Shown: positions 5,401 to 18,365 of the stretch, piece by piece
Numbering within the stretch: the stretch's first letter is position 1
Layout: the number at the start of each line of letters is the position of its first letter
From: an uncultured Anaerolineae bacterium
GTDB taxonomy: Bacteria; Chloroflexota; Anaerolineae; Fen-1058
DNA: 37,745 nt
Direction: 5' to 3'
Assembly (NCBI GenBank): GCA_964354595.1
Contig: CAYHAR010000005.1
Span: forward strand, 1-37,745
Notes under the pieces: model-generated
Databases searched by the model: none
Told to the model about the DNA's origin: nothing
Seen by the model: the letters and a program-made list of their open reading frames with translations, nothing else
Translations under genes and position numbers: made by a program

Positions 5401-7137
5401 TCAGTCGAGATAACCCAGGTCCCGCAGGTGCCCCAGAATAATTTCTTGCTCTTCTGGATCAAGTCCGCTCTCATCTCTTGGTGGAGTAGATGGAGCTGGC
5501 GCTAAAGCATCTTGTTGGCGAGGCTTATTATCGCTTTGATAAGCATCGGTAAATCCATCCAACAGTACATGACCCTCCATGTCGCCGGGGATGGCTTCGT
5601 CCATGAGATAGAGCAAGGTGGGTGCCAAGTCACGCAGGTGCGCTGTTGAAATGTGGCAATGCGCGATGCTGCCCACCGGACTCCACATGAGCAATATGCC
5701 TAGTGCACGATGAGCTGCATTTGCATTCTTGACTGGCTCCACGAGGCTGGTGCTCCAGAAAATTGACCCATGTTTGCTATCGAACTTGCCGTCACGGTAG
5801 GTAACTATGATGTCAGGGGCCTCCGGCATATACGACCCTGAATACAGTTCCTCGCCAAAGTAAACCTGATCCACCATCAAATCACCCGTGATCGGGTTCT
5901 TCATCTGGGACAGCCGTCGCCGAATAGCGTTGCGTATCTGTTTGTATTCTTCGCCAGGTGTGATAATCCCTTGAGGCTCGCGTCCCTTCAAGTTAATGTA
6001 GATAAAACCAGTTTGCGTAGGGCCAGTGGCATAGGCGATCGTTCTACTCCAGTCAACATCCGCGAAACTCAACAAAGGCAGACGCAGCAAGCGATTGGCA
6101 AACAACCGCAAGCGGGACTGCTTCCGACCCACGTGCTCGGTTGATATCCCAGCGAGCCCAGCGCGCAAGTCTCCCAACGTAAAGCGGCGGAGCAATGACG
6201 AGGGCATCAAGCGATAAAGAGCCGCGGGATTCAGTCCGATGGCGTATCCCCACCGCCGGAGCGTGGTCGCAACACTTGACCTCCACTTGATGAATCCTTC
6301 TTGCAATAGCCAATTGTTCAAGTACACATGTCCAGAGGTTGGCCCCATACCATGATCCGACAAGATCACCAAGTCAGTGTCAATGCCGCACATCTCTACC
6401 AAGTCGGCAATGCCACGATCAACCTGCTGAAAAATTTGCAGCATGGCGTGGCTCAAAGGATGTGGCGCACCATCAGCCGTCTTGTCGCCCAAGAACCGCC
6501 AGTACGTATGCTGGACTTGGTCTGTTTCCAAGAAGTGGATAAAGAAAGCATCCCACTCTTTGGCGGCAAGCAGGTATTTAGTTGCCTCGAGCCGTGTTGC
6601 TACCAACTCGCTCAGATATTCCAGGTATCTTTTGTAAGAACTTTCGACGACGGCCGCGTTCCGCGTCAAATCCCACCCGTGCGCTTGTAGCTCGGCCAGG
6701 ATCTCTGTCGGATAAGCTATATCAGGTTGAGCCAGCGCGGGCACCCCGCTAATCAAGAATCCGTTGACTGGCTCAGCCGGATAAGTCATCGGCATGTTGA
6801 TCACTCCCACGCGGTACCCGCGTTGGCTGAGAATGCCCCATAGGGTAGGATTGCGCCTCGGTGGGGAGACGACGGGCACAAGATCAGTGTATTGACTTCG
6901 CAGAGGACGGAAAAAGTCGAAAATGCCTGTATGGCCCGAGTTTTTGCTGGTCATGAACGTGGACCAGGCCACTGGGGTAATCGGGGGAATGGTACTTTGA
7001 AGAGCCGCCGTAGCTCCTTCGTCGCAGAGTCGCTTCAGGCAAGGTAGCTTGCCAACCTCCATCCATGGGGTCAGCAAATCCCACGTAGCACCGTCGAGGG
7101 CAATGACAAGAATTTTGCGTCGAGTTGCCATAGCCAT
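5401..7137 (-). CDS. Alkaline phosphatase superfamily, type I phosphodiesterase/nucleotide pyrophosphatase-like
   Basis: IALDGATWD, STIPPITPVAW, DQVQH, SDHGMG, C-terminal LRDLGYLD. Confidence 0.85.
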   Translation of the reverse strand: MAMATRRKILVIALDGATWDLLTPWMEVGKLPCLKRLCDEGATAALQSTIPPITPVAWSTFMTSKNSGHTGIFDFFRPLRSQYTDLVPVVSPPRRNPTLWGILSQRGYRVGVINMPMTYPAEPVNGFLISGVPALAQPDIAYPTEILAELQAHGWDLTRNAAVVESSYKRYLEYLSELVATRLEATKYLLAAKEWDAFFIHFLETDQVQHTYWRFLGDKTADGAPHPLSHAMLQIFQQVDRGIADLVEMCGIDTDLVILSDHGMGPTSGHVYLNNWLLQEGFIKWRSSVATTLRRWGYAIGLNPAALYRLMPSSLLRRFTLGDLRAGLAGISTEHVGRKQSRLRLFANRLLRLPLLSFADVDWSRTIAYATGPTQTGFIYINLKGREPQGIITPGEEYKQIRNAIRRRLSQMKNPITGDLMVDQVYFGEELYSGSYMPEAPDIIVTYRDGKFDSKHGSIFWSTSLVEPVKNANAAHRALGILLMWSPVGSIAHCHISTAHLRDLAPTLLYLMDEAIPGDMEGHVLLDGFTDAYQSDNKPRQQDALAPAPSTPPRDESGLDPEEQEIILGHLRDLGYLD

Positions 7138-7443: not shown

Positions 7444-7628
7444 TAGAACAGCGAATAGATGAATGGTGCAACGCCCGCTATCTGAGAAAAGACCAGTAAC
7501 GTGCCCAAAACCAATAACAACAGAATCATGGGGATCATCCACCACAACTTTCGTGTCCACATAAAGTGCAGCAATTCTCCCGCAATATCCAGGCGATTGA
7601 TCAGATCATTTAGCAATCTGCTCGCCAT
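7443..7628 (-). CDS. DUF5989 / SxtK-like small membrane protein
   Basis: 'ELLHFMWTRKLWWMIPMI...VAPFIYSLF' signature; directly after the carbamoyltransferase. Confidence 0.85.
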   Translation of the reverse strand: MASRLLNDLINRLDIAGELLHFMWTRKLWWMIPMILLLLVLGTLLVFSQIAGVAPFIYSLF

Positions 7629-9588
7629 CTAATTCGCCTCCTTTCGTACCACAAAGCGGTCCATCACCAGTACGTCAATGCCGCTGTTGTGAAACGTGTT
7701 CCAGGCGTTGGCAGGCGTGTTGACAATCGGCTCACCGCGCACGTTATATGATGTGTTCATCAACACTGGCACTCCCGTCGCCTGACCGAATCTTTCCACC
7801 AGATCATAGTATAGCGGGTTCCACTCTCGCCTCACGGTCTGAATACGCGAGGTACCGCCTTCATGTGTTGTAGCCGGAAAAGCTTGACACTTTTCGTGGA
7901 CGTTATAAACCGAAAGCATATAACGTGCAGGGTACTGACTGGCCACATCTTCGGCGTCTTCATAGAATTCGGCCGTGCGCTCTTCTAGCACCACTGGCGC
8001 GAACGGACGGAACGGCTCGCGGAACTTGATCTTGGCATTCACAATATCTTTCATCTCCGCGCGCCTTGGGTCTGCGAGGATGCTGCGGTTGCCCAGTGCG
8101 CGAGGCCCCCACTCAAACCGACCTTGATACAAGCCAATGACTTTGCCCCGGATGATATCGTCGGTGATAGTATCCACCAACCGGTTCAAGTCATCGTGAT
8201 ATTCGAATGCAATATTGTTCTCGTGCAGGAATGTACGGATTTGGTCATGGCTATATTCAGCGCCCCAATAGCTATGTTCTTCAAAAGTTTCCCGATTGTT
8301 GTCCAGGAGTGTCAAGTTTGGAACGCATGTGCAAAAACAGCTGGCTAGCTGAACATAATTCGACGAAAACTTGCCTGGTTCTGGCCGGTTTCGCCAGTCA
8401 GGACCGCCAAGCCAGGCCCCAAAGCACGAATCGGGAAACTTTTGGTTCTTGTACAAAGTTGCGTGGGCGCTGAAGCAAGACATGATAAACCCACAACGCT
8501 GCTCCCAGCGCCCCCCCCGAATCGCCGGCTGCGGGTTGGATGAAAACATTTTTAAACGGCGACTCACGCATCACGCGCCCATTCGCTACACTGTTGAGCG
8601 TCACCCCTCCTGCCATGCACAAGTTGCGCGAGCCAGTTTGCTGATATGCATAGTGAGCTATCTTGAGAACAATATCTTCGGTGACTTTTTGTATACTGGC
8701 GGCGACATCCGCGTAATACTGATTGCGTCGAGCGCTCTCCGGGTCCTGACGAGCCAAATCCTGTTTAATCTTGCCCGTGAAGAATAAGGATTCAGGAACA
8801 CGAGGTTCGCCAAAGAGATCGATAAATGCGTCACTAAAGGTTTGCGTAGGGGAATGTTGGAAAGTGAAGTAACGCATGTTCAGCGTTAAGGCGCCATCAC
8901 CTCCTACGTGGACCGTCTCATAGACTTTGTCCACGTATCGCGGCTCGCCATAGGGAGCCATGCCCATCACCTTGTATTCACCTTCGTTAACCTCAAAACC
9001 GAGAAAAGCAGTAAAGGCCGAATAAAGCAGTCCTAGCAAATGTGGAAAACGTGCCTCGTACATCATCTCGATTGAGTTTCGACCTTGACTGTCCCATGTG
9101 GCCGCACCTTTGCCAACGGTCGCGGTGGTCCACTCACCTACACCATCTATGGTCACGATTGCAGCTTCTTTGTACGGCGAGACCAAAAAAGAACTGGCAG
9201 CATGTGCCATATGATGATCAGCAAACAGCAGCCGCCCGGGCGGAATTTCCAGTTCTCTCAAAATGAGGCTCTTGACCCACAACTTGTCGTTCATCCAGGC
9301 TGTCATTGCCTGGTGGAAGAGCGATATCGAACGCGGAAACGTCGCCAGAGTGCTTAACAGGATGCGCTCAAACTTGACCAAGGGTTTTTCGTAAAAGACC
9401 ACATAATCCAGATCGCCAGCCTGGATACCACCTTGTTTCAGACAAAACTTGACCGTATGAACAGGAAAGCCATCATCGTGCTTTTTGCGTGAAAACCGCT
9501 CCTCTTCAGCGGCGGCCATGATCGCTCCATCTTTAATCAGAGCGGCAGCCGAATCGTGATAAAAACAAGAGATGCCAAGAATGAACAT
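7629..9588 (-). pseudogene. NodU/CmcH-family O-carbamoyltransferase (SxtI-like), interrupted by a MITE
   Basis: N-half has GISCFYHDSAAA, EEERFSR, HHMAHAAS, DGVGE, GEYKVMG, PAAGDSG. C-half has GRFEWGPRALGNRSIL, KFREPFRPFAP, NTSYNVRGEP. Removing 169 bp (MITE plus one TSD) gives RPRNFVQEHSYWG and a 596-aa ORF. Confidence 0.92.
8282..8444. mobile_element. Non-autonomous miniature inverted-repeat transposable element (163 bp)
   Basis: Perfect 16-bp TIRs CAAAAGTTTCCCGATT (8282-8297) and AATCGGGAAACTTTTG (8429-8444), flanked by direct repeat GTTCTT (8276-8281, 8445-8450); no transposase. Confidence 0.93.
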
Positions 9589-9827
9589 TAAAACTGCCTC
9601 CGAGCATCATCGAGTTGATCTGATATAGGCTTGCGCGCATGCCATTGAAGTGGCGACTGGCAAGTTTGCAGAACATCGCTAAACAATGCAACCCCTAACC
9701 CAAATGGCATCAAGATCGTCCAGTAAAAGACAGCCGTCAAGATGCGGCCCTATGCGGCACCTAGTATGGAAGATAGAACCCTCCAACGAGCCCATGCCAA
9801 CTTCATAATTGCTATCGCACTGTTCAT
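9588..9827 (-). pseudogene. SxtJ-like small membrane protein with an in-frame TAG
   Basis: MNSAIAIMKLAWARWRVLSSILGAA*GRILTAVFYWTILMPFGLGVALFSDVL...W..R...DDARRQF; TAG at 9750-9752; its TAA overlaps the carbamoyltransferase ATG. Confidence 0.8.
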
Positions 9828-9903
9828 ATTAACGGTTTCCCAGATTGAGGAATTCAGAGATCATCCAGTTTTCGAGCATTCCGGCGAACCAGATATCGGT
9901 ATT

Positions 9904-12028: not shown

Positions 12029-13111
12029 CTAGAACAAACTATTCAGGGCGCTTTCAAAACGATCTACGGCCGCATCCCAAGTAAAACGTGCTGCTACCGG
12101 AGGGCCTTTGACCCGCAAACGTTCGGCTAACGCCGTGTCGGTCAGCACTCGAATCATGGCCTGTGCCAAGGCCATCGGGTCATGTGGAGGCACCATCAGA
12201 CAATTATCTTCATCACGGGCGTACTCGTATGCCCCTCGTGTCGCCGTCAAGACTACCGGCGCGCCACAAGCCATCGCTTCTAGCGGCGGCAATCCGAAAG
12301 ACTCGAGCCACGAAGCTGAGACGAATAGATCACAGGTTGCATAGAGCCGTGCCAGTTCAACCCGCGTAGGCCGATAAATGTATTCATACGGCACATCCGT
12401 CTCAATCTGGCAATCTTCCTTGGAGACAATCAATAGTTTAATATCTTTCGCAATTTCATAAACTTGGGCTGCAGCCTGCAGAAAGTCGAACCACCCTTTG
12501 CGCGGACGCATATCGCCCAAATACAAAATGGTTCGCCGGTTGTCCAACTTGGGGCGTGCCTCGGGTGGCAAGGGATGGAAAAGCTCTGCATGGCTCAGCC
12601 CCTCACCAACCACTACTATTCTGCCAGGAGAATCAGTATTCAACTCCTGCCGCGAAAGATCTGACACCACCAGAGCAAGATCATGCCACCGCAAGGCATG
12701 GCGCAGCAACCATTCTTCGTAGGGCCGACCGGCGAACATCTCACGGTTGTCCTGATACAACCACACCAGTCGGCATCTTTTCAACAGGCGGGCCGCTAGG
12801 AAGCCCGCTACCGTTGTGGATGTGTGTGTGGAAATAACCACATGTGAAGGAGGTACTACCCGGGCCAGTGACCACGTGAGTAGAATCATATGCAAAATAC
12901 TCATTTGTGACTTGCGTGCTACACGGCTTTCCCACACGCTCACGCCAGTGCGCACCTCTTGCAACATATCAGGGTCAGAAGTGCCACCGGGCGTGATGAG
13001 AGTGACCCGGTGCCCTCTGGCGGTTAGGCGATTGGCGTATTCCACGATAACCCGCACGCCACCGTTAAGCCACAGAGACGACATAACAAAACTGATATAC
13101 ACGACTGTCAC
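12029..13111 (-). CDS. GT4 glycosyltransferase
   Basis: GGVRVIVEYANRL, RPRKG, ESFGLPPLEAMACG. Confidence 0.92.
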   Translation of the reverse strand: MTVVYISFVMSSLWLNGGVRVIVEYANRLTARGHRVTLITPGGTSDPDMLQEVRTGVSVWESRVARKSQMSILHMILLTWSLARVVPPSHVVISTHTSTTVAGFLAARLLKRCRLVWLYQDNREMFAGRPYEEWLLRHALRWHDLALVVSDLSRQELNTDSPGRIVVVGEGLSHAELFHPLPPEARPKLDNRRTILYLGDMRPRKGWFDFLQAAAQVYEIAKDIKLLIVSKEDCQIETDVPYEYIYRPTRVELARLYATCDLFVSASWLESFGLPPLEAMACGAPVVLTATRGAYEYARDEDNCLMVPPHDPMALAQAMIRVLTDTALAERLRVKGPPVAARFTWDAAVDRFESALNSLF

Positions 13112-15879
13112 TCCATCACATTTAGACAGATTGTCGTATCAGGGGTCGCATTGTGCAAAACCAGTTCATCTTGCATCCACTCCCAATCAAACTGCATGCG
13201 CTCGCCTGCATCGAACACGTTTGCCGGTCTGCTTCCTAGATTGACTTGCGTGCGCGTGCCACCTTCGAAGCATACTTGCCGGCTCCGGTTCTGTTGCAGC
13301 ACGAGAACCCAGCGGCCATCGGTAGCTGCGTCTTGCGTTTGCAGCCATTGCGCCGAGTCATTCTGCAAGAGAATCAAACTCTTGTCCTTGTCTGTCAATC
13401 TGATCTGCCAGCCGCCGGGCAAGCTTTGCGCTTCATACTGTGCGGAAGCCCACTGCCCCAACAAAAACACTGTCGCCAAATGAAGCTGCCCTGGCACAGG
13501 GGAATGATACATTACATTCCAGTTGGGCAGTCCAAGGTCGCCCTTGTCACTCTCTGCCCCAATGGGCTCAATGCTTGTACTCTGCCAGGCCTCTAGAGGT
13601 AGGATCATCCTCACTGGCAAAGGGCTCTCGCGCAGCCACATGCTATTGCCGTCACGACGTCCCTCACCCACCAGATGCCAGGCAATCGCCGGCTGCCCAC
13701 TGCCCTGGGCTGAATCTATCACGATGACAGGGCCTTGGGGGACAAAATAGACAGCGCGCGTATGTGACCAACTTCGCCAGTCGTTAATCGCCGTTCGACT
13801 GAAATCCAATGCGCCGAGCGTCTCAAACCTCTCAACCTGCGCATAGGGCGGCGGATCCTGCGACCACGCGTTGCCAACGCCGGTCAAAATCTGGAGGACG
13901 CGTGCCATACCGGACTGTGGAATCAACAAGCCATTGAGATTCTCGCGCGGCACGCGCTTATCGCGGAATGCAGCACGTCCGCGCGGTAGCCAGCCAATCG
14001 GCTGGTCGGTTGACTGCTCAACAACTATTGGGCCATTCTCATACAGGAGGGTCACCGTGTTTGTTGCCTTATAGCGATGCCACCCAGTGAACCGTAGGTT
14101 AAGCAACAAGTAGGCCGCTTCTGGCGACCAGCTATCTCGGAACACCACCTTATCTGGTGCCAGCGGCCCCGACTGATTGGGGAGGCCGGAATCGCCATAC
14201 AGCAAACAAGAGCCTTCAAGTGGAGAAGCGCCCGACAGCGGGATCGGTACCTCGATTCCAGGCTGCGCTGGCATGAAACCATCACGCTGCTCCAAATCAG
14301 AAAGCGCCCGCTCTGTCAGCCACACGTAACGTGCGTCAGATAGCAATCGTGCCCCTAGGTAGCTGATACCCGCCAACGATAGCCGACTGGGGTGATTATA
14401 CGTCAAGGCCGATCCATCAGGCAGAGCCTGCAAGAGTAACCACTCGAAAGAAAGCCGACGGTTGCGCTTGACTATTTCTGGTTCACCTCCCGTGCTTTGA
14501 TCGTAACCGAATTGGAAAAGAGCATTACTGATCCATTCAGGTTGATAGATGTAGGCATCATCTGTGTTTCGAAATCGCGCTGCCCACCCTCGCACATATC
14601 GGCGCAAGTAATCGCGATTCGCCTCCGATAGCTCTGGTGCACCCAGCCTCTCCTGCTCAAGCATAGCCAACAGCCCGGCCCCGTTTTCTTGGTTTTCGTA
14701 AGGGCCCTCCGGCCATTTTGAGAAGGCCAGGGCATACATCCAGTCCACCCATTCCACAGCCAAAGCACGGCGATTGACAGCAGCAAACCACATCTGCAAT
14801 GTGCTCCAATCTTGATCGGTAAATAAACCCGGAAAAGCTGCCCGAACACGGGGCGCATAATATGCTCCCAGGGCTGCCTCATGTTGCGTAGACTTGACAC
14901 TGTTGGCCGGCCCGGTGAATCGGCCCGCTCGCGCTTCGGCCAAAATTGCATCGCGAAACACTTCGGCCCAGCACTGCTGGTGCGTGCCCAGCGCCAACAG
15001 TGCAAATTCTGAGGGGCGCTTGTAAGGGTTTGCTTCGACGCGCGCCAAAAGCTGCCGATACACATCCACACCAGAAGGCTGCTGGGGATCAGCCGCAACT
15101 TGGCCGCACACGAATGGAGTGGTTTCTGTGATTCCGGGATAGGCGGGAGCCTCTGAAGTATAAAAACTATGCTGGTAAGCCACAAGGCCCCAGACGCCCA
15201 ACCCAATCATCATGCTGGTCAGGCCACCAATAATCACCAAGCTCGTCTCGCACGTTGGCCTGTCAATAATGTTTTCCGTTTTCACCCGGCGACGGTCCAG
15301 GTAACTCTGCCCGGACAAGAACAACAAACAAAAAACTACCAGAGCGATGCCCTGCACAAACACAAAGAATTCTTCATCTGAAAAGCGACCCTCGATTTGG
15401 CTGAGAATGATAGGCAGAAATCCACCGGCCCCGGCCAGGATCAATCGAGCTATCCAGCGTCCTACACGATTGCAAACCAGGGCTGCGACAACAGTCCGAT
15501 CCAGCCAAGCCAGCGACACGTACATCACAACGAGCGATAGCCAAGCTGCCCACGTGTGTTGGCTGAACGCATACCACGTACTGCTCGCTGCAAGGCCGAG
15601 GATCAGCCCGAGGGCTTGCCACGACCATCTATGCCAGCCGGAGCAACAGACGATTTCGCACAGTGCCAAAAGCCCAACGACGAAACTCACTGACCATAGC
15701 AAGCGGAGCACCAAATCGCCAGTGACGGACGGTGTGCTGGCGACTTGCACTATCCCCAGATAGCTGACCAGGCAAAACCATACCCCGATTCTATCTGCGA
15801 TCGCTCCAAACGCGATATTGCTGGCTTGCTGACTTGCCGGTTTATTGATCTCTACCCTCCGCCTGCCACAGATGAACAC
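13108..15879 (-). CDS. Polytopic membrane protein with extracellular heparinase II/III-like (alpha-toroid plus beta-sandwich) region
   Basis: About 7 N-terminal TM helices; 'VFRDSWSPEAAYLLLN...GWH...N.VTL..NG' and 'HTRAVYFV...VIVID' resemble Hepar_II_III. Start uncertain. Confidence 0.6.
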   Translation of the reverse strand: MFICGRRRVEINKPASQQASNIAFGAIADRIGVWFCLVSYLGIVQVASTPSVTGDLVLRLLWSVSFVVGLLALCEIVCCSGWHRWSWQALGLILGLAASSTWYAFSQHTWAAWLSLVVMYVSLAWLDRTVVAALVCNRVGRWIARLILAGAGGFLPIILSQIEGRFSDEEFFVFVQGIALVVFCLLFLSGQSYLDRRRVKTENIIDRPTCETSLVIIGGLTSMMIGLGVWGLVAYQHSFYTSEAPAYPGITETTPFVCGQVAADPQQPSGVDVYRQLLARVEANPYKRPSEFALLALGTHQQCWAEVFRDAILAEARAGRFTGPANSVKSTQHEAALGAYYAPRVRAAFPGLFTDQDWSTLQMWFAAVNRRALAVEWVDWMYALAFSKWPEGPYENQENGAGLLAMLEQERLGAPELSEANRDYLRRYVRGWAARFRNTDDAYIYQPEWISNALFQFGYDQSTGGEPEIVKRNRRLSFEWLLLQALPDGSALTYNHPSRLSLAGISYLGARLLSDARYVWLTERALSDLEQRDGFMPAQPGIEVPIPLSGASPLEGSCLLYGDSGLPNQSGPLAPDKVVFRDSWSPEAAYLLLNLRFTGWHRYKATNTVTLLYENGPIVVEQSTDQPIGWLPRGRAAFRDKRVPRENLNGLLIPQSGMARVLQILTGVGNAWSQDPPPYAQVERFETLGALDFSRTAINDWRSWSHTRAVYFVPQGPVIVIDSAQGSGQPAIAWHLVGEGRRDGNSMWLRESPLPVRMILPLEAWQSTSIEPIGAESDKGDLGLPNWNVMYHSPVPGQLHLATVFLLGQWASAQYEAQSLPGGWQIRLTDKDKSLILLQNDSAQWLQTQDAATDGRWVLVLQQNRSRQVCFEGGTRTQVNLGSRPANVFDAGERMQFDWEWMQDELVLHNATPDTTICLNVME

Positions 15880-18365
15880 ACAGAAACATCAAACGCAAAC
15901 ACGCCCACTTTGTCTTGCCGATACAGTAGCTTGAATTGCGGGGACGACTCTAAACTCGCAAGAGGCAACATGGGTTCCGGCGGCGGCAACGCGATCCGCC
16001 CTTGTCCCTGGCCCACGTAGACATGCGTGATACTGTGCTGGCACAGCAGCCGCATCCCCTCCGGCGATGTGACCCCAACCTGCCTGAGTTGCGCCACCAG
16101 ATCGGTCACAGCTTTATCATAGCCCGGTTGATAGGGCTTTTCATTCAGCAGCGCATATTGAGGCGGCATTGTGTTTTGCCGACCAGCCAACAGCGGAATC
16201 CACCATCCCGCATCCGATCCAACCACCGACCGACCATCATAGATCAAAAAGCCATCCACGAGAAAGCGAGCATCGCCCGGCGTATTGGCGCGAAGCCAAT
16301 CCATCGCTACCAAGTCAGCCGGAGCCACCAGGCGATACGACGGGTTTATGACTGCGCTGCGCTCCTTGGCGCCCCACGCTGCCAGGCCAATCAGCCCTAC
16401 GACCGCGGCCACTTTTCCCCACTGACGCAAACGCCCCAGATGCTCCAGCGCCGAGTCCAGCATATAACCACCCAATAGCCCGACGGGGATGTACAGACTG
16501 ATCATGATGGCAAAGCTTGCCATGTGGTTCGACCCCGGCAACCTGATGAGCCGCGTTGCCGTCAGTGCCGCCAATCCCGCAACCCACAAACCAATTGTCG
16601 CCACCGCGGCACGCTGCCGGCGCCGAGCCACGCCCCAGATCAGGCCGGCGACAGCCAATGCCATGAGAGCGACGGGAATGTAATGGGCAATGTCACGCCA
16701 TTGCCCATATTCGCGCAAAACCTGATCCAGCGTAGAGCCGTTGGTAACCCCGGCTTCAATCGTCGCGGCCAGACTGCCGCCTGCGATGTGCATCAGCCAC
16801 GGCACGATCAGCGCCAGCATTACCAGGCCCGTCACAATCAACCAAGCTGCCCACCTGATCCACGATCTCCAATCTAGTCTCCATCGCGGCAGACCGATTG
16901 CCAAAAGCCACGCAACGACGAATGCCGCGTAATAATGCGGCATTCGGTAGTACGATAAAAACATACCCGCCAGCGCCATGGCCGTGAGTAGCATTACGCG
17001 CCATCTCTGTTTCGCTTCTGCTTCGGCTAGCTCCCAGGTCAACCAGGCTGCGACCGGCAACACGGCTTGTCCTGCCAGTTGGGAATAACGTCCCCAATTC
17101 ACGTATTCCATCGGCAAAGGTGAAAGCAATCCGGCCACGAGCAGCGCGCCAATTCCCGCCCACCGGCTTATAGTCAAACGGCAGGCCAGCGGAACGAGGA
17201 CGAGGATGGCAAGGAAATTGATCATCTGCCCGGCTACCAATGTGTTGCGCGGGATAGCATTGCCCATTAGCCAATGCACAGCGGCGATGTCGCTGTGAAA
17301 TCCAAAATGAACCGTGAGTGTCCGAAAAGGAGTATACGGCAGCCACGAGTCGAACAGACCGCCGTGATCTACCATCAACTGACCGATGACTGCGTGCTGA
17401 ACTGAATCGCCCCAAAATGGAACTTGATAGCCACGGATGACGAACAGCCGCACTCCCAAGACCAACAACATAACCAACGCCAAAAGCGCGTCGGAGAGGA
17501 ACGCTTCGGAATGCATCCACCGTCCAAACGCGGCATGCGCCGCGGCGGGCGAAATGTGGATCACGCGACGATTGCGCCACCCTAGAGCGAGGGCGGATAC
17601 TGCCACCGGTCCCCACGCGGCTGCCACTCCCAATTGCGCGCCAATCACGCGCGCCCACAGCAATACGAGCGGATAGACGCACAGACTGAGGCCAGCAGAC
17701 AAACCCAGCATCTCGCCCCAGGTGAGTTTTCTTCCCGGCAACAGATACGTCAGCAGCGCCCAACCCGGCAGTATGAACAACGCCAGCATTACCAACAGAA
17801 CTTGCACGTCGGACAACGTATCCAGCAATACATTGGCGACTAACTCTCCCCACGCGTAATGAAGCTGAAAGGTCAGTTGCCTATCGCGCGGCTGGCCCGA
17901 CCGATACATCGCCCCATCGTCATAGGTCGGCCCAAGGCCACGCCCCACCGTGAGCGAGCTGCCTTCAGGCAATCCCTGCGCTTCAATCAGAAAATAGTAT
18001 CGCCTGGCGTGGGTGTCGTGGATCGGGGGAAACGAGAAAGTGTAAAAGCCGGGGCCAGAAACTCTGACCAGAGGCAGGCTTGCCTGAGCAACATCCCGTT
18101 CCGAGGTAGGATCAGTGCGGAGATGCAAAATGGCAACGCCATCGCCGGCGTTGCCATCTACCGCAGCCAATACACTGATGCCATTCAAGCCCCCGTGCCA
18201 TGCCACAAAAGTCTGTCCCACATTTTGCGTGGCGGTTACCGGGCTGCCTAGACCCAGGGAATTGTTCGGCTGTGTGGCATCCACAAAATCGGAGCAGCCG
18301 CTGGCCCACAACGCGATCAGCGCCAACAGAGGCAACAACCCAAAACGGCGATTGAACACTGCCAC
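15852..18365 (-). CDS. Large GT-C-like polytopic membrane protein with N-terminal lipobox-bearing extracellular domain
   Basis: Signal peptide with WASGC; more than 10 TM helices; loop 'WGDSVQH', 'WGRYSQL'; C-terminal 'AMDWLRANTP.DARFL' and 'ITHVY' as in GT-C soluble domains. Confidence 0.7.
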   Translation of the reverse strand: MAVFNRRFGLLPLLALIALWASGCSDFVDATQPNNSLGLGSPVTATQNVGQTFVAWHGGLNGISVLAAVDGNAGDGVAILHLRTDPTSERDVAQASLPLVRVSGPGFYTFSFPPIHDTHARRYYFLIEAQGLPEGSSLTVGRGLGPTYDDGAMYRSGQPRDRQLTFQLHYAWGELVANVLLDTLSDVQVLLVMLALFILPGWALLTYLLPGRKLTWGEMLGLSAGLSLCVYPLVLLWARVIGAQLGVAAAWGPVAVSALALGWRNRRVIHISPAAAHAAFGRWMHSEAFLSDALLALVMLLVLGVRLFVIRGYQVPFWGDSVQHAVIGQLMVDHGGLFDSWLPYTPFRTLTVHFGFHSDIAAVHWLMGNAIPRNTLVAGQMINFLAILVLVPLACRLTISRWAGIGALLVAGLLSPLPMEYVNWGRYSQLAGQAVLPVAAWLTWELAEAEAKQRWRVMLLTAMALAGMFLSYYRMPHYYAAFVVAWLLAIGLPRWRLDWRSWIRWAAWLIVTGLVMLALIVPWLMHIAGGSLAATIEAGVTNGSTLDQVLREYGQWRDIAHYIPVALMALAVAGLIWGVARRRQRAAVATIGLWVAGLAALTATRLIRLPGSNHMASFAIMISLYIPVGLLGGYMLDSALEHLGRLRQWGKVAAVVGLIGLAAWGAKERSAVINPSYRLVAPADLVAMDWLRANTPGDARFLVDGFLIYDGRSVVGSDAGWWIPLLAGRQNTMPPQYALLNEKPYQPGYDKAVTDLVAQLRQVGVTSPEGMRLLCQHSITHVYVGQGQGRIALPPPEPMLPLASLESSPQFKLLYRQDKVGVFAFDVSVCSSVAGGG

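Follow-up and report, generated by a model that had tools for sequence, protein, structure and literature searches.

A young 163-bp MITE insertion in a carbamoyltransferase gene of an uncultured Anaerolineae bacterium, and an unnamed IS4-superfamily element as its likely autonomous partner

In the analysed window, a 37,745-nucleotide stretch of DNA from an uncultured Anaerolineae bacterium of sediment, a gene for an O-carbamoyltransferase of the NodU/CmcH/TobZ type, located on the minus strand within a glycan-synthesis cluster, is interrupted between the regions for its N- and C-terminal domains by a 163-bp MITE, whose position (8282-8444) was confirmed to the base. The element recurs in the same assembly, is flanked by target-site duplications, is missing from the same site in contigs from public sediment data, and has ends identical to those of an IS of about 2.02 kb. 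It is held with considerable confidence, for the account as a whole, that the MITE was mobilised in trans, likely with this IS as the source of the transposase, that the interrupted enzyme is likely inactive, and that the insertion is of recent date and has not gone to fixation. While the insertion of a MITE into a gene is an ordinary kind of event, the new part is that neither the element nor its parent transposon has been named so far, as judged by NCBIfam models and the literature. The features discussed below are as follows.

8282..8444, no strand: MITE, non-autonomous and without coding capacity of its own (sequence, and copies elsewhere in the assembly)
8282..8297, plus strand: left terminal inverted repeat CAAAAGTTTCCCGATT (sequence, repeat search, shuffle test)
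8429..8444, minus strand: right terminal inverted repeat AATCGGGAAACTTTTG, the reverse complement of the left one (sequence, repeat search, shuffle test)
8276..8281, no strand: target-site duplication GTTCTT, left copy (sequence)
8445..8450, no strand: target-site duplication GTTCTT, right copy (sequence)
8338..8351, minus strand: hairpin CAGCTAGCCAGCTG with TTTTT after it, within the MITE, resembling a terminator on the sense strand of the gene (a weak consensus match only)
8445..9588, minus strand: carbamoyltransferase gene, first 381 codons (5′ part), with a complete Carbam_trans_N domain (PF02543, 9e-82, residues 3-365)
7629..8276, minus strand: carbamoyltransferase gene, last 215 codons (3′ part), with Carbam_trans_C, in another frame than the 5′ part (PF16861, 1.6e-65)

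The GTTCTT duplication, the perfect 16-bp terminal inverted repeats (TIRs) and the length of 163 bp, described in the initial annotation of this DNA, are read in the sequence exactly as claimed there. An inverted-repeat search found the TIR arms complementary at 16/16 nt (100%) with a spacing of 131 nt, and the TIR 16-mer, with up to two mismatches allowed, occurs twice in the window vs. 0.01 occurrences expected (100 shuffles, of which none reached two). The TIR stem of the MITE folds as a hairpin, and the small interior hairpins that had also been pointed out are present, i.e., CAGCT/AGCTG at 8338-8351, which is the terminator-like site listed above, and CTGGC/GCCAG at about 8381-8397. Terminator-like sites in positions 7500-9900 number five, vs. 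2.5 ± 2.1 in shuffles, and a promoter scan revealed no promoter-like site on the strand of the gene inside or adjoining the MITE. No Rfam family was matched in positions 7900-8800 at E up to 1, hence there is no sign of the element being a known RNA gene. As had been stated from the outset, this short element contains no transposase; the only frames that stay open across it belong to the flanking gene, which reads through.

A search of the genome for further copies, named initially as a check, found six complete copies of the MITE in the same assembly, which fall into three sub-families (163, 162, and 148 bp), and two partial ones on contigs C143 and C311; the number is a lower bound, since the assembly is fragmented. 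All six complete copies are flanked by a 6-bp duplication, the sequence of which is different at each: GTTCTT for the window copy (contig C5), ACTTTA (C188), ATGATG (C35), CCTTGA (C346), AAGACA (C50), and GACAAA(C) (C22), the last being also readable as 7 bp. Inside the sub-families of 163, 162, and 148 bp the copies are 99.4%, 100%, and 99.3% identical, respectively. The window copy differs at only 1/163 bases (~99% identity) from the one on C188 (positions 6324-6486), and the 162-bp relatives on C35 and C346 are 70% identical to it. The interiors of the three sub-families differ and one pair of ends is common to all. The 13-mer core of the TIR is present in 5/22 genomes of the family (when reversed as a control, it gave 0-1 hits in each genome), and the search for the MITE interior in 60 relatives returned only two weak 43-bp partial matches, both in one genome (G013), and no copy outside the own assembly. 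By its length, TIRs, target-site duplication and copy number, as well as by the ends in common with an IS and the empty site described below, the insert is a MITE, as was proposed at the start.

The carbamoyltransferase gene is otherwise intact. The frame of its 5′ part (ORF 8398..9588) enters the MITE, where it gains 15 extra codons before a stop at 8398-8400. Excising 8282-8450 (169 bp) gives a single minus-strand frame that reads ...RPRNFV followed directly by QEHSYWGAEY... and begins with the ATG at 9588 and ends with the stop at 7629, i.e., 1791 nt or, by arithmetic, 596 aa; the fusion and the product length predicted earlier were thus obtained again. The break falls at residues 381/382 in the inter-domain linker, given that residue 365 is the last of the N domain and that about 40 residues lie between the break and the beginning of the C domain. 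Comparison with related loci, likewise suggested at the start, showed both halves on a single open frame, with the domains fused and the insert absent, in 11/11 cases; the halves are set apart there only by two residues (QE), which had been trimmed from the query beforehand. Among solved structures in the PDB the N part matches NovN (2.5e-42), GdmN (1.9e-39) and TobZ (6e-31). A paralogue with 50% identity, open to the contig end, is present on C227 of the same assembly and could take over part of the carbamoyltransferase function.

Both forms of the site, filled and empty, are found in public sediment data. The filled left junction (8281/8282) is spanned by contigs in three of the four runs covered (X1, X5, and X6), e.g., record 20 of X6 covers 8073 to 8305. 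In two of the four runs (X1 and X5) there are empty-site contigs, in which 8275 is joined to 8445, so that exactly 169 bp are skipped, with 6 ambiguous bases, and exactly one copy of GTTCTT is kept at the joint. These contigs have no other differences over 258 bp (X1) and 175 bp (X5), and they hold only 24 bases left of the joint, which is below the 30 advised for metagenomes. Contig depth of empty vs. filled-junction contigs is 4.34 vs. 2.07 in X1 and 5 vs. 3.8 in X5, these being per-contig values and not allele frequencies. It might be argued that the insert is an assembly artefact, i.e., a repeat mis-threaded into the gene: the metagenome-assembled genome is fragmented (586 contigs), the element is a repeat, and the right junction (8444/8445) is bridged by no contig among the matches listed. 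However, a perfect 6-bp duplication at the exact ends of the element marks a transposition event and not a wrong join, and the left junction is crossed in three runs, one of which may be the source sample; an artefact can be given almost no weight. The insertion is of recent date and has not reached fixation; intact and interrupted alleles coexist in natural populations. The suggestion that the insertion was recent, made from the sequence at first, is borne out by the single difference to the C188 copy, by the otherwise intact gene and by the coexisting empty-site form, the search for which had been proposed as well.

The candidate for the autonomous partner of the MITE, likely in our view, is an IS of about 2.02 kb (e.g., positions 742-2759 of locus L061), common in sediment metagenomes, that encodes a 630-aa transposase, in which a DDE_5 domain is followed by DDE_Tnp_1, and that has ends of 16-18 bp as in the MITE. 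Both ends are carried by 18 of 29 closely related metagenome loci, 2001-2043 bp apart, and both 16-mers are perfect in 8 of these 18; the left TIR of the MITE is identical to the ends of the IS in loci L054-L075. In L052 and L027 the DDE transposase gene stops a few bases before ...AATCGGGAAACTTTTG. The latter locus is the IS copy of a same-genus genome (G002), a single 5′-truncated relic, the left end of which was searched for and not found, and therefore the full anatomy of the IS is not obtainable from it. Among 16 IS loci with both flanks, duplications of 6, 5, and 5 bp were read at three, while the rest are regarded as putative chimeras, formed when a multi-copy repeat was assembled. The MITE and the IS are similar in the terminal 16-22 bases, to which the similarity is confined; it is hence the ends and the duplication length that link them, and the MITE is not a simple internal-deletion derivative of the IS, because its interior is dissimilar beyond these bases.

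The IS group comprises 87 protein clusters, nearly all of them metagenomic, and a scan of genome contigs with the transposase gave three loci only (G002, L052 and one weak match). No relative of it was found in the own assembly, either by genome search or by tblastn at E up to 10 (noise only). Since this assembly consists of 586 contigs and is 92.8% complete, the partner IS may be unassembled, unbinned or truly absent. One unrelated DDE_Tnp_1 gene is present on contig C34 of the same genome (22995-23663), and a PDB sequence search with the transposase gave no match at E up to 1. That a DDE IS bearing these ends mobilised the element in trans was postulated initially, and such an IS does exist, in other records only. 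One may ask if the MITE was instead moved by another transposase, the common ends being coincidental or used by several IS types. The 630-aa protein is not found in the own assembly, the likeness is limited to the ends, and the unrelated gene on C34 does encode another DDE_Tnp_1 protein; but the 630-aa gene is flanked by MITE-type ends of 16-18 bp in 18 loci, and the duplication lengths agree, i.e., 5-6 bp for the IS and 6 bp for the MITE. Moreover, the end variants CAAAAG and CAAGAG are both common to MITE sub-families and full-length IS copies (CAAGAG, the variant of the 148-bp sub-family, is also on full-length IS L065), and all 16-mer matches with up to two mismatches in the own genome are parts of MITE copies. 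Another transposase is accordingly thought quite improbable, and the 2.02-kb IS most likely moved the window copy of the MITE.

None of the curated IS-family models gives the transposase a score above its cut-off. The best protein-level match, transpos_IS4_4 (NF049925), reached 122 bits vs. a cut-off of 250, transpos_IS701 (NF033540) 70.7 bits vs. 150, with two further models in the IS701 test, NF049921 and NF049999, at 48 vs. 250 and 47 vs. 170, and transpos_IS1634 (NF033559) 20.4 and 29.7 bits vs. 100. By contrast, PF01609 (DDE_Tnp_1) was scored at 35.0 and 44.3 bits, above the Pfam cut-off of 23, and by this predicted domain the transposase belongs to the IS4 superfamily. The motif Y/H-(2)-R-(3)-E-(6)-K/R is present, with the Y and K of YREK kept in L027 and replaced by H and R in L052. 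According to the family description ('IS4 family goes genomic', PMC2266710), IS1634 elements have 1500-2000 bp, ends C-----YT, 5-6-bp duplications, rather AT-rich targets and a large transposase, in which the arginine of the YREK motif is present in only 5/32 members; IS701 elements have 1400-1550 bp, a 4-bp duplication and an end consensus unlike the ends of the partner IS; and IS4 proper makes 8-13-bp duplications. The partner IS is like IS1634 in its ends, CAAAAGTT..., which fit C-----YT, in its 5-6-bp duplications, rather AT-rich targets and large transposase, and its length of ~2018 bp (2001-2043) is at or just above the upper limit of the family, whereas the low model score and the retained YREK arginine set it apart. 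With IS701 and IS4 it shares the best model matches (IS4_4, 122 bits; IS701, 71 bits), DDE_5 before DDE_Tnp_1 and the Y/H-R-E-K/R motif; it departs from IS701, as described there, by length and duplication, and from IS4 proper by its 5-6-bp duplications, the sub-cut-off score and the motif incomplete in L052. The indications of family therefore diverge, the DNA features appearing IS1634-like and the protein scoring best on IS4- and IS701-type models. Among named proteins of plasmid records, the closest is an 'IS4-like element ISTeha4 family transposase', which aligns over one third of the protein at 26% identity, and no source checked gives an IS-family name for the transposase. Judging by titles and the opening of abstracts, none of the papers listed on MITEs in Chloroflexi/Anaerolineae and on IS1634/IS701 describes the MITE or the IS, in keeping with the early view that the family could not be assigned and was possibly undescribed.

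In the mechanism proposed, a DDE transposase supplied in trans, probably by the unnamed IS4-superfamily IS with its 630-aa DDE_5 and DDE_Tnp_1 protein, would recognise the 16-bp ends of the MITE and cut the target GTTCTT, with a stagger of 6 bp, in the linker that joins the Kae1-like N domain to the YrdC-like C domain. The MITE would be inserted at the cut, and repair of the stagger would duplicate GTTCTT. Since the insert amounts to 169 bases (169 = 3 × 56 + 1) and a stop follows 15 codons in, the product could be no more than the N domain plus a short foreign tail, and thus the enzyme would most likely be inactive, as it would lack the YrdC-like domain, which in TobZ forms carbamoyl-adenylate. 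A retained function is conceivable in two ways, i.e., the domains work as separate polypeptides, or the site is a reversible switch that operates via precise excision. In favour of this, it is the inter-domain linker that is broken, the C-part frame has no stop back through the entire MITE to 8567, an allele with an empty site and an intact gene coexists, and in t6A synthesis the related proteins Kae1/TsaD and YrdC/TsaC work unfused. Yet the sole start-type codon downstream of the N-part stop in the C-part frame is a TTG at 8315, with no purine-rich ribosome-binding stretch seen by eye in the 20 bases upstream, and the domains are fused in all 11 related loci. As for excision, the initial annotation held that it would switch glycan carbamoylation back on. 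The intact allele which this presupposes exists, but DDE cut-and-paste excision seldom restores a site exactly, so the empty allele may more simply be the ancestor, and that the substrate is a glycan is inferred from the neighbour genes. A preserved or switchable function is, on balance, given little credence, and a loss of enzyme activity is preferred.

Besides the three MITE sub-families, non-autonomous elements with the ends of the IS include a ~710-bp element in genome G003 and another type in G010. A broader reading is put forward only tentatively, and with more doubt than trust: the 2.02-kb IS and these elements might constitute an undescribed IS4-superfamily group (IS701-like transposase, IS1634-like ends, 5-6-bp duplications), active today in sediment Anaerolineae, where its insertions would keep up standing presence/absence variation, within a single population, in genes for the modification of surface glycans. 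The window offers a clean natural case, in which a MITE interrupts the gene of a glycan-modifying enzyme (a predicted knock-out) and the same sediment populations still carry the intact allele; cell-surface diversity in uncultured Anaerolineae may thus be due in part to polymorphism of mobile elements. A widespread unnamed IS group gains a defined anatomy (ends, length, duplication and non-autonomous derivatives), which would aid annotation of Chloroflexota genomes and metagenome bins, where 2-kb repeats usually drop out of assembly. The understanding of how MITEs work is unchanged.

Compared with known systems, the element resembles bacterial MITEs that are derived from or cross-mobilised by IS in its small size (148-163 bp), its lack of coding capacity, its perfect TIRs, a target-site duplication of fixed length, several near-identical copies, ends in common with an autonomous IS and a TIR stem that folds as a hairpin. 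It is different in that the interior is unlike the partner IS beyond the 16-22 terminal bases and that three sub-families with unlike interiors stand behind one pair of ends. The interrupted gene has the same two-domain layout, Carbam_trans_N and Carbam_trans_C, as the O-carbamoyltransferases TobZ, GdmN, and NovN, whereas its neighbours are genes for glycosyltransferases, a methyltransferase and an SGNH/AlgX-like protein rather than those of an antibiotic pathway.

The stretch 8276-8450, read in the initial annotation as a MITE with perfect terminal inverted repeats (TIRs) between GTTCTT duplications, matches that description exactly, and the two small hairpins reported from its interior are present. 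The following parts are read from the sequence:

8276-8281, left target-site duplication, GTTCTT
8282-8297, left TIR, CAAAAGTTTCCCGATT
8429-8444, right TIR, AATCGGGAAACTTTTG
8445-8450, right target-site duplication, GTTCTT

A repeat search of the window returned the TIR arms as 16 nt long, with 100% complementarity and a spacing of 131 nt, and, when up to two mismatches are allowed, no site in the 37.7 kb other than the two element ends matches the 16-mer (0.01 matches expected from shuffles). The sense-strand RNA of the carbamoyltransferase gene over these 175 nt, repeats included, is predicted to fold at -59.6 kcal/mol (z = -2.8), with a closing stem that would be formed by the TIRs. The gene is left in two parts:

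8398..9588, minus strand, ORF of 396 aa, residues 3-365 matching Carbam_trans_N (9e-82)
7629..8276, minus strand, frame of 215 aa, matching Carbam_trans_C (1.6e-65)

The N part matches the solved O-carbamoyltransferases NovN, GdmN and TobZ. The first 381 codons of its ORF are genuine, while the remaining 15 (PKVSRFVLWGLAWRS) are derived from the element and end in TGA, the insert causing a +1 frame shift plus a stop. Removal of 8282-8450 reproduced the 596-aa fusion that had been claimed for a 169-bp deletion, as one continuous frame in which ...RPRNFV is followed directly by QEHSYWGAEY.... In TobZ the C domain makes carbamoyl-adenylate, which the N domain then transfers, and by analogy with these domain roles a product consisting of the N domain only should be inactive. 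The two parts might conceivably still work as a split enzyme, as the insertion point lies in the linker between the N and C domains and no stop interrupts the C frame anywhere in the element, although no credible start codon with a ribosome-binding site was seen for it. Besides the expected inactivity of the N-domain product, the element has on the gene's sense strand a weak terminator-like hairpin, of a kind no more frequent in this region than chance would give, which might exert a polar effect on the small membrane ORFs and the phosphodiesterase gene downstream. The neighbours of the carbamoyltransferase gene are:

two GT2 glycosyltransferases
three GT1/GT4 glycosyltransferases
a methyltransferase
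an SGNH/AlgX-like protein
a phosphodiesterase-family protein

These surroundings point to a polysaccharide-synthesis cluster, from which we infer, reasonably, that a glycan would be the substrate. Amid the glycosyltransferases lie two minus-strand ORFs of 923 and 837 aa (13108-15879 and 15852-18365) for which Pfam gives no match at E <= 1e-5.

Relatives of the N part (E <= 1e-30) were found in 16 of the 41 genomes searched. Comparison with orthologues, which the initial annotation had named as a check on the insertion, covered 11 related loci (L040-L050; ten at 60-66% identity, L050 at 49%), and the insert is absent from all of them: the N and C parts share a single open frame (601-1011 aa) and the gap between them is exactly two residues, QE, which are encoded by the duplicated hexamer and were omitted from the query. 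Of the same-genus genomes, G001 and G003 have only a paralogue type at 51-53%, and no N-part relative was found in G002 at E <= 1e-30; therefore these genomes offer no orthologous empty site at the DNA level. The type found in G001 and G003 is also represented in the window's own assembly, G000, by a second carbamoyltransferase (G000:C227:1-1527, minus strand) that is 50% identical to the interrupted gene; the frame of this paralogue stays open over 508 codons, up to where the contig stops.

In G000 (586 contigs, 4.58 Mb, 92.8% complete) the MITE reading, and the search for further copies that it called for, are borne out by six complete elements, each with its own duplication:

C5 (the window), 163 bp, duplication GTTCTT
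C188, 163 bp, duplication ACTTTA
C35, 162 bp, duplication ATGATG
C346, 162 bp, duplication CCTTGA
C22, 148 bp, duplication GACAAA(C), 6 or 7 bp
C50, 148 bp, duplication AAGACA

The TIR 16-mer with up to three mismatches has 46 matches in G000, against about 35 expected by chance on our own estimate, and all matches with up to two mismatches are parts of elements. Two more copies are partial: one truncated where C143 ends, and a mini-form of about 62 bp on C311. Within the sub-families the copies are 99.4% (1 difference in 163), 100% and 99.3% identical; the 163-bp and 162-bp forms can be aligned from end to end, in opposite orientation, at 70% identity, whereas the 148-bp form has only its ends in common with them, in the variant CAAGAGTTTCCCGATT. 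Interior blocks common to the 163-bp (8282-8444) and 162-bp (G000:C35:10824-10985) forms, e.g., GTGAACATAATTC and TGGAACG, might be internal transposase-binding or other functional sites, judging from two distinct sequences only. A long conserved gene is clearly broken by the C5 copy alone; the C50 copy lies four codons before the end of a 354-codon frame and the others are in short or doubtful frames. The mini-form (G000:C311:2571-2632, L012), which belongs to the 148-bp sub-family, sits within a palindromic repeat rich in CACGAAG/CTTCGTG words, and the flank of the C143 copy (G000:C143:9295-9384, L013) has CACGGAT words resembling the interior of that sub-family; these surroundings suggest that small repeats of a different type lie nested or side by side here.

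Words of 7900-8850 occur in 23 public sequencing runs, every one labelled as a metagenome of sediment or freshwater sediment. Eight of the runs contain half or more of the words, and contigs of four of these (X1, X5, X6 and X7) were compared with 7600-9600. The search for empty-site alleles that had been proposed found a precise empty site in one contig of X1 (282 nt) and one of X5 (199 nt), where 24 bases equal to 8252-8275, fewer than the 30 advised, are followed by 8445 onward with no other difference. The joint skips exactly 169 bases, six bases fitting either side, and is the predicted excision product to the base. The filled left junction is crossed by contigs in X1 and X5 (8252-8311) and in X6 (8073-8305), and the X7 contig, ending at 8281, shows neither form; X1 and X6 also contain a contig that has the flank of the C188 copy and, at 8333, its base. 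Both allele-specific contigs have their start at 8252, which is exactly 30 bases short of where the alleles diverge, and for these contigs we take k to be 31, at which a bubble in the 31-mer graph gives such a start. Because the contig starts fit this bubble and the joint matches the predicted product, the empty-site allele is accepted as existing in the public runs; that it is ancestral, rather than revertant, is the simpler reading.

A 13-base TIR core is present in five of 22 taxonomic-family genomes (G000 11, G003 3, G010 3, G002 1, G009 1), and a reversed 13-base control gave 0-1 matches per genome. In G002 the motif stands at the end of a DDE_Tnp_1 open frame of 413 aa; this copy (L027 2779-4043), the only one of the partner insertion sequence (IS) in a single-contig genome, is 5'-truncated with a perfect right end, and its left end was looked for and not found. 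Another transposase fragment, of 40 residues, lies elsewhere in G002 (L038). A scan of species-representative genomes yielded L052, a 1959-bp contig ending exactly at ...AATCGGGAAACTTTTG, whose product is a 630-aa transposase with DDE_5 and DDE_Tnp_1 domains. A metagenome scan, with an alignment of two transposase proteins as query, returned 80 loci, including 29 close relatives (L054-L082), of which 18 have both ends, eight the right only, one the left only and two neither. The two-ended loci measure 2001-2043 bp end to end (2017-2021 bp in 14 of 18), with inverted repeats of 16-18 bp, and in eight of the 18 both 16-mers are those of the MITE; L065 carries a CAAGAG variant at both ends, as in the 148-bp MITE sub-family. 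Duplications flank three of the 16 IS loci with two flanks (AAGTAT, 6 bp; GTTAA and ATAAT, 5 bp each); in the 13 without one, different copies of the repeat are suspected to have been joined chimerically within short metagenome contigs. MITE and IS are similar only in their terminal 16-22 bases.

Thus, the DDE IS with the same ends that had been postulated does exist, in metagenomes, G002 and L052, but no transposase relative was found in G000. Most transposase relatives in the protein collection are on contigs of about 2-4 kb, which has the look of a collapsed, unbinned repeat, and the absence from G000 is therefore weak evidence. The only DDE_Tnp_1 transposase gene found there (G000:C34:22995-23663, minus strand; 422-codon frame, 37.7 bits) shows no relation to the 630-aa partner in tblastn. 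Other non-autonomous elements, with unrelated interiors, occur under the same terminal repeat in two relatives: in G003 (L028 3923-4632, L029 130-191, L030 4013-), one of them of about 710 bp with a degenerate right end, and in G010 (L033 1927-, L032 -4005, L031 -3983) as another type whose sub-terminal sequences match at separate left and right ends. In the most likely course of insertion, a trans-acting DDE transposase would bind the 16-bp ends, the target would be cut with a 6-bp stagger and its repair would duplicate GTTCTT.

The partner transposase exceeds the Pfam cut-off for DDE_Tnp_1, and against NCBIfam it scores far under all three curated cut-offs:

transpos_IS4_4, 122 bits, cut-off 250
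transpos_IS701, 71 bits, cut-off 150
transpos_IS1634, 20-30 bits, cut-off 100

No IS-family name appears among 87 related protein clusters, in agreement with the earlier view that the family could not be assigned, and among plasmid records the closest relative with a name is an ISTeha4-type IS4-like transposase, which matches a third of the protein at 26% identity. In a review of the IS4 family (PMC2266710), IS1634 members are described as 1500-2000 bp long with C-----YT ends, 5-6-bp AT-rich duplications and large transposases, IS701 as 1400-1550 bp with a 4-bp duplication, and IS4 proper as having 8-13-bp duplications. By that description the length, ends, duplication and large transposase of the partner IS fit IS1634, whereas its length and duplication do not fit IS701, nor its duplication IS4 proper. 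Yet the partner keeps the motif arginine that is absent in most IS1634 members, and varies at the motif tyrosine (L027 Y, L052 H) as IS701 members do (PMC2266710). Full-text searches returned no paper on this element, though the supplementary end alignments of PMC2266710 might list a related one. Since the NCBIfam scores are below cut-off and DNA and protein features point to different families, the partner is filed, from its sequence, only under the IS4 superfamily. MITE insertions in bacterial genes are well known, and therefore the kind of event is not new; what is new here is the element family itself, together with the definition of a partner IS of about 2.02 kb that has no name and the direct evidence of an insertion segregating in natural populations.
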